Shown piece by piece: positions 25,182 to 27,879 of a DNA stretch of 27,879 nucleotides. The translations under genes were made by a program, and so were the position numbers. The stretch lies in NCBI GenBank assembly GCA_036562395.1, contig DATCKF010000040.1:1-27879 (forward strand). The letters run 5' to 3'. This DNA is from Bacilli bacterium (lineage in GTDB: Bacteria; Bacillota_I; Bacilli_A; ML615J-28; CAG-698). Numbering within the stretch: position 1 is the stretch's first letter; every line of letters begins with the position of its first letter. The notes below the pieces were generated by a model. It was not told the DNA's origin. It saw only the letters and a list, made by a program, of their open reading frames with translations, and did no database searches.

Positions 25182-25209
25182 AAGAGACCTTAATGGTCTC
25201 TATCTTTTT
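25181..25209. terminator. bidirectional intrinsic terminator
   Basis: AGAGACC-ttaat-GGTCTCT with an A-tract before and a T-rich tract after, between convergent genes. Confidence 0.8.
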
Positions 25210-25970
25210 ATTAATCCTACGATTTTTATTTGCTTTTTCTTATGTGGTTCGACTTTATCAACAATCAATTTTAAGATATTATCATCAACAACATAAATGT
25301 TCTGTTCTTCGTCATCAATTAAAACTTTTTCTATTTCGTAATCATCAGGAAGTAACGTTTTAACTTCAACATCCGTTGCCACTTCATTACCGATGTTTTC
25401 AAGATTAATTTTATAATCATATGGTTTATTTGGATAAACGACATCAATTTCTTCAATATCACATAGAATCTTTGCAAATTTCTTTGTTAAAACAACAGGA
25501 TCAGTTTTTAATGTGTTATTATTATCAACTGTAACTGTTGAAGTTGATGTTAAATTATCATATTCTTCTTCATATTCATCAACTACAGTTTGATATGTTA
25601 TATATAAACTGCGATGTGGTTGCAGATTGGAAATAATAAATTCCAATTGATTATCCCGTTTGATAAATTTAAAAGGTTGTGCTGATTCAATACAAGATAA
25701 TTTTACTGATCCATCAACAAGCTTTTGACGATTGATATCTTCGTGAACGATTACTTCCTCTGCTGGATAATTACCTTCATTAGTTAAGATGATATTATAT
25801 GTTACAATATCACCAGGTTTAAAAAATTGGGTATCAGCAAACCGTTTAATTTTGACCAATACTTCACGAATCGTCGGATTTACCGCATTAGAATTTGTCC
25901 TTCCTTGAACAATCATATCACCTAAACTATAGTTATAATTGACTATTGCTCTCGTTTTTGTATTTTTCAT
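25200..25970 (-). CDS. DUF11 (conserved repeat domain)-like protein with two beta-sandwich repeats
   Basis: PGDIVTYNIILTNEGNYPAEEVIVHEDI and PNKPYDYKINLENIGNEVATDVEVKTLLP match the DUF11 pattern; RBS AGGAGG; no signal peptide. Confidence 0.75.
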   Translation of the reverse strand: MKNTKTRAIVNYNYSLGDMIVQGRTNSNAVNPTIREVLVKIKRFADTQFFKPGDIVTYNIILTNEGNYPAEEVIVHEDINRQKLVDGSVKLSCIESAQPFKFIKRDNQLEFIISNLQPHRSLYITYQTVVDEYEEEYDNLTSTSTVTVDNNNTLKTDPVVLTKKFAKILCDIEEIDVVYPNKPYDYKINLENIGNEVATDVEVKTLLPDDYEIEKVLIDDEEQNIYVVDDNILKLIVDKVEPHKKKQIKIVGLIKR

Positions 25971-26021: not shown

Positions 26022-26115
26022 ATACAACCTATTAATTTCTATATGTTTGTACATAGCAATTTGTAATGTCAATCTTTAGAATTTTTCATAATATATATTG
26101 AAAGGAGGAATAGTT

Positions 26116-26253
26116 ATGACAACAGTAAATCAATGCGGTAATATTAATCCATGTTGCGATAATACATTATATGGTTTTAGAAGAGGAAACAACTTTGCTT
26201 TTGTACTTGTGCTCTTTATCCTACTAGTAATTGTTGGAGCTGCTTGGTTCTAA
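26116..26253 (+). CDS. YjcZ/SscA family small sporulation membrane peptide (45 aa)
   Basis: Not in the track. MTTVNQCGNINPCCDNTLYGFRRGNNFAFVLVLFILLVIVGAAWF; the C-terminal FAFVLVLFILLVIVGA is the family signature (F-x-x-I/V-V-V-L-F-I-L-L-I-I-V-G-A); strong RBS AAAGGAGG. Confidence 0.88.
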   Translation: MTTVNQCGNINPCCDNTLYGFRRGNNFAFVLVLFILLVIVGAAWF

Positions 26254-26300: not shown

Positions 26301-26459
26301 ATGAATAACCGTGAAGTTCGTAGTCTTTCTCAACTGATAAATCAAGCAATTGATGCATATGAAACGTTATTAAGGGACTTACAATATCGTGAAGTAAGGC
26401 CTAAAAAGCGTTCAAATTTTGGAAAGATTAAAGAATTTCTATTCAAAAGAGTGTTTTAA
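26301..26459 (+). CDS. small hypothetical protein (52 aa)
   Basis: Not in the track. MNNREVRSLSQLINQAIDAYETLLRDLQYREVRPKKRSNFGKIKEFLFKRVF; RBS GGAGGTG and its own terminator. Confidence 0.7.
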   Translation: MNNREVRSLSQLINQAIDAYETLLRDLQYREVRPKKRSNFGKIKEFLFKRVF

Positions 26460-26476
26460 CAGTAAATAAAAATACA

Positions 26477-26509
26477 AAGAACAGACGTAAATGTCTGTTT
26501 TTTCTTTTT
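26477..26509 (+). terminator. intrinsic terminator after the 52-aa ORF
   Basis: AACAGAC-gtaaat-GTCTGTT-TTTTCTTTTT. Confidence 0.8.
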
Positions 26510-26567
26510 ACTTCGACATATTCTTTTATAATTTCTCAAAAAATTGAGAAAATTTACAAAAAAATAC

Positions 26568-26596
26568 TTGCAATTTTATTTTCATTATGTTAGAAT
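26568..26596 (+). promoter_or_regulatory. sigmaA promoter of the riboswitch-mreB transcript
   Basis: TTGCAA (26568-73), 17 nt spacer, TGt-TAGAAT (26591-96); predicted +1 near 26603, just before riboswitch P1. Confidence 0.8.
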
Positions 26597-26607
26597 TTAA
26601 GTGTGTA

Positions 26608-26704
26608 AAATAAATATTCAAAGGGCAACTACTCGGAAACGATTAGAACGCAAAGTCACAGAGCTAAGGAGAAATCTATGCTGGCTGGGCCGCAATATTT
26701 ATTT
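26608..26704 (+). promoter_or_regulatory. cyclic di-GMP-I (GEMM) riboswitch aptamer
   Basis: P1 AAATAAATATT (26608-18)/AATATTTATTT (26694-704), 11 bp; J1/2 CAAAGGGC; P2 CTACTCG-GAAA-CGATTAG with GNRA loop, then ACGCAAAG; P3 GTCACAG-AGC-TAAGG...CTAT-GCT-GG-CTG-GGC with tetraloop-receptor-type TAAG/TATG. Equivalents of Vc2 G20 (26624), A47 (26652) and C92 (26693) are in register. Confidence 0.93.
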
Positions 26705-26775
26705 AAAAGATTATCATTTGACACCTTATGCCTGCTCGCATATTTTTTTGTGATATCTTAAATATTGCCAGGAAC

Positions 26776-26805
26776 GCTCCTTTGAATAAGGGAGTTTTTT
26801 GTTTT
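26776..26805 (+). terminator. riboswitch-controlled intrinsic terminator (expression platform)
   Basis: GCTCCTTT-gaat-AAGGGAGT followed by TTTTTGTTTT, between the aptamer and the mreB RBS. Confidence 0.85.
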
Positions 26806-26833
26806 GCACAAAAAATCTTTTAAGGAGGATAGT

Positions 26834-27871
26834 ATGAATGACAACAGACAGCAGAAGGGCAGAATGAATGTCGGAGTAGACTTAGGTACTTCTAGCCTTC
26901 TCATTTATGTTGAAGGTCGAGGAACTGTCTTCAATGAACCCTCGATCATTGCTGTTGACAAAGCAACCAAGAAAGTCGTTGCTGTTGGTTATGAAGCTGC
27001 GCAATTAGTTGGTAAAGTTCATGATAAGGTTGAAGTAGTTCGACCTTTGCAAGGCGGAGTGATTTCGGATGTGGAAATGATTCGTGAGATCTTACTTTAC
27101 ACTTTCGAAAAATTGTTTGGTGATAGTGATTCAAAGATCAATCGATTGTTGATGTGTGTACCTTCAGGAATTACTGAAACTGAAAAGCAAGCGATGATTA
27201 AGTTAGGTCAAGAATTAGGTGTTGATGACATGCGCATCGAAGAAGAAATTAAAGCCGCTGCAATTGGTGGTGGAATTGATATCTTCGTGCCATTAGGACA
27301 TTTAGTTGTTGACATTGGTGGTGGAACAACTGATTTTGGTGTTTTAGCACTTGGTGATGTTGTTCTTGGTCGTTCAACAAAAGTAGCAGGCGACGAGTTT
27401 GATCGTCAAATTACAAATTATGTAAAAGAAAAACACAAACTCGAAATTGGACCTCAAACCGCTGAAAGAATTAAAATTCATCTAGCATCTTTAACTGGTG
27501 ATTATCCTGAAGATGAAGAAGGAAACGTAGTTACTTATAATGCGATGGGTCGAGATTTAGTAACAGGTTTACCAAAAATGGTTGTTATTGAAGCTCATGA
27601 GATTCGATCAATTTTATTAAGTTGTTTTGAAACAATAAAATCAACATTAATTGCAACTTTAGAATCGACACCACCAGAATTATCAGGTGACTTAGTTGAT
27701 ACTGGCATTCTTGTAACTGGAGGAGGAGCTTTAATTAAAGGTATTAAAGAATACTTCGAAGATATTACAGGAGTGAAAGTAGAGGTTGCAACTTCACCAA
27801 TTACAGCTGTAATTGATGGAACAAAACGTCTTTTAAAAATCAATAGCCACCATTATTATGGGGAGTATTAG
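26834..27871 (+). CDS. mreB: actin-like protein MreB, Spiroplasma/Haloplasma-type (345 aa)
   Basis: GVDLGTS, NEPSIIA, RPLQGGVISD, VPSGITE, VDIGGGTTD, GRDLVTGLP, TPPELSGD, TGGGALI. Start is ATG 26834 behind AAGGAGG; the track's TTG 26804 lies in the terminator tail. Confidence 0.95.
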   Translation: MNDNRQQKGRMNVGVDLGTSSLLIYVEGRGTVFNEPSIIAVDKATKKVVAVGYEAAQLVGKVHDKVEVVRPLQGGVISDVEMIREILLYTFEKLFGDSDSKINRLLMCVPSGITETEKQAMIKLGQELGVDDMRIEEEIKAAAIGGGIDIFVPLGHLVVDIGGGTTDFGVLALGDVVLGRSTKVAGDEFDRQITNYVKEKHKLEIGPQTAERIKIHLASLTGDYPEDEEGNVVTYNAMGRDLVTGLPKMVVIEAHEIRSILLSCFETIKSTLIATLESTPPELSGDLVDTGILVTGGGALIKGIKEYFEDITGVKVEVATSPITAVIDGTKRLLKINSHHYYGEY

Positions 27872-27879
27872 AGGTGTAA

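Follow-up and report, generated by a model that had tools for sequence, protein, structure and literature searches.

The riboswitch Cd1 (Cdi-1-3), which precedes the flgB flagellar operon of Clostridioides difficile, is composed of a GEMM-I aptamer for cyclic di-GMP (c-di-GMP) followed by an intrinsic terminator, and works with OFF logic. Here we describe an RNA of the same class (c-di-GMP-I, or class I) in a stretch of DNA from a Bacilli bacterium, hereafter called the window, which is an entire contig of 27,879 bp from a 948-kb metagenome-assembled genome (MAG; G000) that is 61% complete. The RNA lies in front of an operon of three tandem mreB genes and a gene for a degenerate GGDEF-EAL protein. 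As in Cd1, the aptamer is followed by an intrinsic terminator and OFF logic is predicted, and both switches govern (here by prediction) a multi-gene operon for cell mechanics or motility that is expressed at low c-di-GMP. Cd1 differs in its target, which consists of flagellar genes, whereas here the genes encode three MreB paralogues and a degenerate GGDEF-EAL protein in hosts that are mostly wall-less and without flagella. Vc1 and Vc2 of Vibrio cholerae and Bc1–Bc5 of Bacillus thuringiensis share with the present RNA the P1 helix, the GNRA-docked hairpins and the equivalents of G20, A47 and C92 (PMC4744006, PMC11218506, PMC4759541), and Bc1 likewise has a long expression platform with terminators. 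In contrast, the targets of these switches are adhesins, competence or chitin genes and chemotaxis proteins, and none has been reported before mreB. The initial annotation of the window, made from the letters alone, had proposed the pairing of a c-di-GMP riboswitch with mreB and knew of no described case; a full-text literature search on c-di-GMP riboswitches with MreB and the related wall-less genera found no description of it either. The RNA itself is unremarkable, belonging to a well-known class and having a standard terminator platform; what is new is the target and the conserved cassette. We consider it probable that the leader is a functional class I c-di-GMP riboswitch that controls the four-gene operon by transcription attenuation with OFF logic, and that the fourth gene encodes a receptor-like EAL protein.

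The sole Rfam match in the window is RF01051, at 26614–26697 on the plus strand. It scores 50 bits (E 3.8e-7; gathering score 35 bits) over the full model (positions 1–87) and agrees to within a few bases with the complete GEMM aptamer of the initial annotation. The aptamer is closed by a 10-bp P1 helix, in which the 5' strand AATAAATATT (26609–26618) pairs with the 3' strand AATATTTATT (26694–26703). Relatives were surveyed in 106 genomes of the window's GTDB order and in 158 genomes of another order, which includes Candidatus Izemoplasma sp., Candidatus Xianfuyuplasma coldseepsis (G250) and Izimaplasma HR1 (G251); a same-genus genome (G001, Acholeplasmataceae bacterium AS08sgBPME_216), 95% complete, served for comparison. 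The set of 22 leaders used throughout comprises those of the window, its sister genome and 20 genomes of the order Izemoplasmatales. Alignment A1 contains the 22 aptamers, and alignment A2 the orthologous leaders including the promoter region.

The 21 orthologous leaders score 55–77 bits on RF01051, and the inner seven pairs of P1 are retained in 20–22 of the 22 sequences. Over the 30 pairs of alignment A1, 91.8% of the cells are paired and both sides change in 11 pairs; in the first hairpin all six pairs covary. None of 500 shuffles reached the observed values, and slid partners pair in only 27–41% of cells. The GAAA tetraloop of the first hairpin and its CUAAG/UAUG receptor in the second, both read from the sequence, are invariant or nearly so. 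The ligand-contacting nucleotides were numbered as in Vc2 (G20, A47 and C92) via the Rfam alignment and established structures; G26624 (G20 equivalent), the ACGCAAAG block and C26693 (C92 equivalent) are invariant in 22/22 aptamers. An A in place of G20 would point to the variant of the class that binds cyclic GMP-AMP (cGAMP). From the invariant contact nucleotides and the established structures, c-di-GMP is therefore predicted as the ligand, not 3'3'-cGAMP. The arrangement lies far beyond chance, because it recurs in 22 genomes with covariation, and by all sequence criteria the RNA is confirmed as a genuine c-di-GMP-I riboswitch, for which ligand binding is predicted.

The gene behind the leader is mreB1 (26834–27871, plus strand), the first of the three tandem mreB paralogues. 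Its 345-aa product matches PF06723 (MreB_Mbl) with 361 bits over profile positions 2–321 of 327 and passes NCBIfam PRK13927 (320.8 bits; cut-off 293), while it stays below the narrower models TIGR00904 (297.6 vs 365.75) and MreBH (NF010540; 291.1 vs 515). The ATG at 26834 was preferred over the TTG at 26804 given in the list of open reading frames (ORFs), because the ATG has a ribosome-binding site (RBS; AAGGAGG, 26822–26828, plus strand, conserved in 22/22 leaders) and a conserved N-terminus. The window ends 8 nt past the mreB1 stop, and the operon continues on contig C121 of the same assembly. Positions 27793–27879, the final 87 nt of the window, are the exact reverse complement of the end of C121 (L035 5215–5301), and because of this overlap the two contigs are regarded as adjacent pieces of one locus that was split within the tandem mreB paralogues. 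The minus strand of C121 (L035) contains mreB2 (5213–4200; 337 aa), mreB3 (4187–3153; 344 aa) and the GGDEF-EAL gene (3149–1851; 432 aa), which starts 3 nt past the mreB3 stop; the next gene encodes a lipoprotein with aBig_2 and amidase_2 domains. The gene order of the operon is repeated in L037, L039 and L040, and the 95%-complete same-genus genome has the identical order on a single contig with a 77-bit RF01051 match in front. Two independent public contigs, a 44-kb DNA contig and a 4.5-kb contig from an RNA library, also extend past the end of the window and thereby confirm the join. The initial annotation was therefore right in naming mreB as the target, but mreB1 is not a lone gene and heads an mreB1-mreB2-mreB3-GGDEF-EAL operon.

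Three elements lie on the plus strand between the aptamer and the RBS. The last of these is the intrinsic terminator found by the terminator scan (26776–26805), with an 8-bp stem (GCTCCTTT/AAGGGAGT, 26776–26795), the loop GAAT and a T tract, the sequence after the stem being TTTTTTGTTTT to 26805. A hairpin and U tract are found 31–43 nt before the ATG in 22/22 leaders, in which the stem sequences vary and their complementarity is kept. Upstream of it lies a segment that we call the anti-P1 box (TAAATATTGC, 26759–26768), the exact reverse complement of 26692–26701, and thus a partner of the P1 3' strand together with G26692 and C26693. This box reads AUAUUGUG in most other leaders and is situated 4–16 nt upstream of the terminator arm. 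An anti-P1 helix of at least 8 bp (CGCAAUAU with AUAUUGYG), exceeding P1 in stability, occurs in at least 20 of the 22 leaders; in L089 both of its strands are changed in concert. It encloses the third element, a variable spacer hairpin (26707–26758) seen in the minimum free energy (MFE) folds, the sequence of which is unconserved, yet most orthologues have some hairpin there.

The aptamer 5' segment UUCAAAGGG (26617–26625, plus strand) is the proposed antiterminator partner of the terminator 5' arm (26778–26786). This pairing is present in the unconstrained MFE fold of the window, with a duplex energy of −13.7 kcal/mol (z = −4.6 vs shuffles). In the free MFE fold (−45.4 kcal/mol) the antiterminator and the anti-P1 helix are present and the terminator is missing, while in the fold with the aptamer enforced (−37.7 kcal/mol) the terminator is formed; the predicted gap of 7.7 kcal/mol would be within reach of tight ligand binding. 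When the transcript is folded before the terminator 3' arm is added, the 5' arm pairs with the aptamer in 20/22 MFEs. The arm is most often complementary to the 5' AAGGGC segment that includes the G20 equivalent, and its complementarity to the aptamer exceeds that of shuffled arms (shuffle fraction ≤0.02 in 13/22 leaders). Furthermore, variant aptamer 5' segments occur with matching terminator arms, namely UUUUAAGGGC with GCGCCUUAA, UUCCAAGGGC with GCCCUGG, and UUCAGGGGC with GCCCCUG; the last pair, in L095, has −15.6 kcal/mol compared with −8.4 kcal/mol when the arm is paired with the consensus segment. Such apparent covariation of the antiterminator is suggestive. The mutually exclusive pairings are thermodynamic predictions, clear-cut in the window and L037 and kinetic at best elsewhere.

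We propose that transcription begins at about 26603 and that binding of c-di-GMP would lock P1 and the aptamer core. The terminator 5' arm would then be left only with its own 3' arm, so the terminator would form and the operon would be OFF. When the ligand is absent, the anti-P1 box would pair with C26693, a ligand contact, and with the 3' strand of P1, the aptamer would open, and the freed UUCAAAGGG segment would pair with the terminator 5' arm, allowing read-through into the operon. In other lineages, one of the GGGC segments of the aptamer may act as the antiterminator partner. Given this OFF logic, the three MreBs would be made at low c-di-GMP, like the motility genes of other bacteria, and the co-transcribed GGDEF-EAL protein might act with them as a c-di-GMP receptor.

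Some class I c-di-GMP riboswitches are ON switches, and the opposite direction, in which ligand binding favours read-through and the MreB cassette is made at high c-di-GMP, has points in its favour: the terminator is predicted at equilibrium in 20/22 leaders even with the anti-P1 helix formed, and an anti-P1 box standing apart from the terminator, with no overlap, is also what anti-antiterminator designs have. An ON switch of this kind would need the freed anti-P1 box to pair with the terminator. However, when only the part downstream of the aptamer is folded, the terminator still forms in the 22 leaders (P 0.65–0.99), and for this reason we rejected an ON design via the anti-P1 box as the principal interpretation. 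In addition, the ligand-free MFE folds of the window and L037 lack the terminator (P = 0.00), and the terminator 5' arm has its complement in parts of the aptamer that bound ligand would make inaccessible. We therefore judge an ON switch improbable; folding of the 22 leaders supports the OFF direction predicted in the initial annotation, and makes it quite probable.

A sigma-A-type promoter precedes the aptamer on the plus strand (26568–26596). It has the −35 hexamer TTGCAA (26568–26573), a 17-nt spacer and an extended −10 element, TG-n-TAGAAT (26588–26596); in a consensus scan of the window its hexamers match the consensus at 9/12 positions, plus the TG. TTGCA and TGnTAnAnT occur at the same position in about 13/22 leaders (alignment A2), and transcription is predicted to start at about 26603. 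The other nine leaders (L039, L072, L074, L077, L071, L082, L081, L085 and L090) are without the TTGCA −35 box and carry instead a palindrome, GG(G/C)TCATATATGA(C/A)C, about 60–75 nt upstream of the aptamer; the palindrome, which was not found in the window, looks like the site of a dimeric regulator. The gene upstream of the leader ends in its own terminator (26476–26503), and therefore the riboswitch and mreB genes are taken to form a separate transcription unit.

Contigs from the RNA libraries of two metatranscriptome runs, which belong to different studies, start at 26613 and 26632, that is, 10–30 nt downstream of the predicted transcription start. They cross the terminator into mreB1 and further, in one case over about 3.2 kb. 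Coverage of 26494–26559 is absent from both runs, and one has a separate contig for the upstream genes that ends at 26449. The locus is also present in DNA runs of 11 studies, including those of anaerobic digesters, bioreactors, sludge, soil, manure and landfill.

The promoter, terminator, RBS and ATG of the initial annotation were all found at, or within a few bases of, the positions it had given, and no other credible feature lies between them. A promoter-like site between the aptamer and the terminator, TTGACA-17-TATTTT (26718–26746; 10/12), was judged a chance match in AT-rich sequence, because relatives have not kept its hexamers, the terminator still follows it and the RNA contigs start at the aptamer. 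Two ORFs, at 26601–26753 (plus strand) and 26758–26904 (minus strand), were dismissed as being without an RBS and overlapping the structured RNA. A promoter after the terminator, which would bypass the leader, was also rejected: the 29 nt available in the window between 26805 and 26834 contain no −10-like hexamer, and no promoter is conserved there. A motif, TTATTTTATAC(A/T), is kept between the terminator U tract and the RBS in most Izemoplasmatales leaders and is not present in the window; it is probably an extension of the U tract, though it may alternatively serve as a weak −10 element or pair with the anti-P1 box.

Within the window's own order, close MreB1 orthologues were found solely in its genus (2/106 genomes). 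In the other order, MreB1 orthologues with 64–74% identity occur in 22 of the 158 genomes. In 20 of these 22 genomes, as in the window and the sister genome, RF01051 is located on the same strand and 125–154 nt before the start of MreB1, and the leader with its aptamer, anti-P1 box and terminator is present in the cultured Ca. X. coldseepsis and in Izimaplasma HR1. The pairing proposed for one contig is thus conserved in Izemoplasmatales and in the window's genus. The EAL orthologue occurs in the same genome set, about 3.1 kb downstream of the mreB1 start where the contig allows, and adjoins the mreB genes in about 20 Izemoplasmatales genomes. In the clade of G132, G134 and G137 the EAL gene comes first; in G134 (L095, contig C64, minus strand 2022–1243) it is preceded by two complete RF01051-plus-terminator units in series, while in G132 and G137 the sequence upstream of the EAL gene is lost at contig ends. 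Between the two aptamer units of L095 there is an ORF of about 75 codons with a good RBS.

Two MAGs labelled Spirochaetia (L115 and L116; 5683–5777 and 6001–11264) contain the four-gene cassette and the riboswitch, with the same P1 sequence. Pleomorphochaeta sp. DL1XJH-081 (L113 6001–10737) has the cassette with no detectable RF01051, and a HisKA_7TM-GGDEF gene just upstream. These cases suggest either transfer of the module between phyla or mislabelled bins. Two other relatives (L038 and L041) have the mreB trio at 72–74% identity and no EAL gene, and in their genomes no RF01051 was found anywhere and no GGDEF domain; in the 900-nt leader of L038, RF01051 was not detected even at E values up to 10. 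Three carriers, in contrast, hold 6, 14 and 20 GGDEF hits, the six being those of the window's genome, where the initial annotation had advised looking for them. With only two related genomes the contrast is an anecdote, which fits the riboswitch and EAL protein being the c-di-GMP interface of the cassette.

Other copies of RF01051 were also noted. The window's genome has a second one (58 bits) at 1501–1575 of L001 (G000 C55), 26 nt before a gene that starts at 1602 and encodes a small signal-peptide protein cut by the contig end. In G106 and G107 the other copies precede three MASE3-GGDEF cyclases, a lipoprotein and similar secreted proteins of 160–200 aa that match nothing in Pfam. The window's family commonly has two or three RF01051 aptamers in tandem, about 120–200 nt apart (G012:C12 2117–2539, G020:C28, G003:C3, G021:C5, G008:C86 and G017:C3, with spacing up to about 1.3 kb in G017:C3).

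The EAL domain of the fourth gene product matches PF00563 with 129–151 bits, and active phosphodiesterases are its nearest relatives with solved structures. However, 21/21 orthologues have an invariant lysine (KGIE/KGVE) in place of the EGVE glutamate, which we take to be the general base, as in RocR (the residue roles follow the RocR and TBD1265 literature), and the same 21 have A, V, N or T at the position of the second Asp of DDFGTG. They keep the EAL Glu, the Asn, the Lys and the QG motif. An AlphaFold2 model (predicted local distance difference test, pLDDT, 85) matches the tandem GGDEF-EAL structures of PA0575, MorA, DosP and LapD over about 426 columns, and because these matches are full-length the N-terminal 170 residues appear to be a GGDEF-like domain that Pfam no longer recognises. 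The Izemoplasmatales orthologues carry two additional N-terminal transmembrane helices. The protein thereby resembles the degenerate GGDEF-EAL receptors LapD and FimX: like them it has the tandem fold, has lost catalytic residues, is genetically linked to a surface or motility machine and, in the Izemoplasmatales orthologues, has a membrane anchor; it differs in the specific changes (Glu to Lys in EGVE, DD to D-x) and in keeping the EAL Glu, Asn, Lys and QG, and its ligand binding is putative. Since the general-base Glu and one metal-binding Asp are lost in every orthologue, a c-di-GMP receptor is likelier than a phosphodiesterase, and we somewhat favour that role for this putative receptor.

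This protein could also be regarded as the gene product for which the riboswitch was selected, in a c-di-GMP feedback, with the mreB genes as co-transcribed neighbours that have no special link to c-di-GMP. Riboswitches of this kind before GGDEF or EAL genes are common; moreover, the riboswitch and the EAL gene are co-present and co-absent, the riboswitch directly precedes the EAL gene in G134, and other RF01051 copies of these genomes precede MASE3-GGDEF cyclases. Against this, the residues lost in 21/21 EAL orthologues make c-di-GMP degradation doubtful, and every member of the EAL family found in the 158 genomes searched adjoins the mreB trio. The association of the four genes with the riboswitch is kept in two orders and in the Spirochaetia-labelled MAGs, and the mreB genes sit behind the same terminator whatever was selected. 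A feedback on the EAL gene alone thus appears rather improbable compared with control of the operon as a whole.

Spiroplasma uses MreBs for swimming. Spiroplasma (SMreB1-5) and Haloplasma contractile (HMreBs) are, like the present hosts, wall-less or wall-reduced relatives of Bacilli with several tandem mreB paralogues; they differ in their MreB-based motility, no movement having been reported for Izemoplasmatales (10.1101/2020.05.13.095042; 10.64898/2026.06.16.731841). The three MreBs of Izimaplasma and Xianfuyuplasma (I1–I3) form sister clusters of the Haloplasma MreBs, which can drive movement of a minimal cell, and neither of the two papers mentions a riboswitch, c-di-GMP or an EAL gene (10.64898/2026.06.16.731841; 10.1101/2020.05.13.095042).

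Some features of the window's genus would suit three MreBs acting as ordinary guides of wall synthesis or sporulation, with c-di-GMP tuning wall growth. A SEDS protein is present in G000, G001 and G108 and a MraY-type transferase in G001 and G108, an amidase lipoprotein gene lies downstream of the operon, and a gene for a sporulation peptide of the YjcZ type lies just upstream. The last is a 51-aa ORF of the YjcZ_2 family (26098–26253; 39.7 bits); beyond it is a divergent 256-aa gene with DUF11/DUF7619 domains (25200–25970), and both are conserved beside the mreB leader in the sister genome. Together with the one SEDS gene, they suggest that the genus retains sporulation and some peptidoglycan synthesis. 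In contrast, MreC was not found in the five genomes searched (among them G000, 61% complete, and G001, 95%), and the two Izemoplasmatales genomes G106 and G107 have the same cassette and leader, with SEDS and MraY absent, so the canonical elongasome partner set (MreC, SEDS/RodA and peptidoglycan precursor synthesis) is incomplete. Cassette and leader are also found in X. coldseepsis, described as wall-less (PMC8397711), and published trees place the Izimaplasma MreBs with those of Haloplasma, apart from B. subtilis MreB (10.64898/2026.06.16.731841). We therefore regard guidance of wall growth as very improbable. The pattern of MreC, SEDS and MraY, together with the literature on Haloplasma-related MreBs, makes a role in shape or movement a reasonable inference, and a shape or motility system is plausible, rather than the housekeeping wall scaffold from which the initial annotation had also set it apart.

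A bolder and, in our view, unlikely version of this reading is a self-contained c-di-GMP-gated MreB machine for shape change or movement, in which the riboswitch would set MreB synthesis, the membrane-anchored GGDEF-EAL protein would serve as a second c-di-GMP sensor, at the protein level, and directly gate MreB filament assembly or force, and the module would move as a unit between phyla. If so, the non-motile, coccoid Xianfuyuplasma would represent the high-c-di-GMP, switched-off state.

Several observations weigh against a c-di-GMP OFF switch for an MreB motility or shape operon. Published accounts give X. coldseepsis, the carrier in culture, as a wall-less coccus that does not move (PMC8397711), so a motility role is conjectural. 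The window's aptamer, which has a single C-U mismatch and an insertion of 1 nt, scores below all the others, although it retains the tetraloop, the receptor, the ACGCAAAG block, G26624 and C26693. In full-length folds with no aptamer constraint, the 20 Izemoplasmatales leaders (of the 22) keep the core terminator at equilibrium, and therefore a switch there would have to be kinetic. The antiterminator partner is ambiguous, being either the 5' AAGGGC segment of the aptamer or the GGGC or AAGGAG segments of the P2 3' side, and among 11 variant leaders the own pairing is stronger than the consensus in six, about equal in four and weaker in one. A prediction of the complex between the GGDEF-EAL protein and MreB3 scored 0.00, which is evidence in neither direction. 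Finally, the ends of the RNA-library contigs do not establish a transcription start, and RNA libraries may hold DNA; nevertheless, the pattern of these contigs is consistent with that expected of the predicted transcription unit with read-through.

The present finding bears on why wall-less bacteria retain several MreB actins. It assigns c-di-GMP to the MreB cassette of Izemoplasmatales as a defined input signal, predicts that the cassette is ON when c-di-GMP is low and offers a candidate sensor at the protein level. The leader is also present in the cultured strain X. coldseepsis zrk13, and the question is therefore directly testable, with the relatives devoid of c-di-GMP signalling, riboswitch and EAL gene as a natural comparative control. 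Class I c-di-GMP riboswitches, known to control flagella, pili and adhesins, would thereby gain a cytoskeletal system in their regulon, and a lifestyle signal would be tied to the bacterial cytoskeleton in more than 20 mostly wall-less bacteria.

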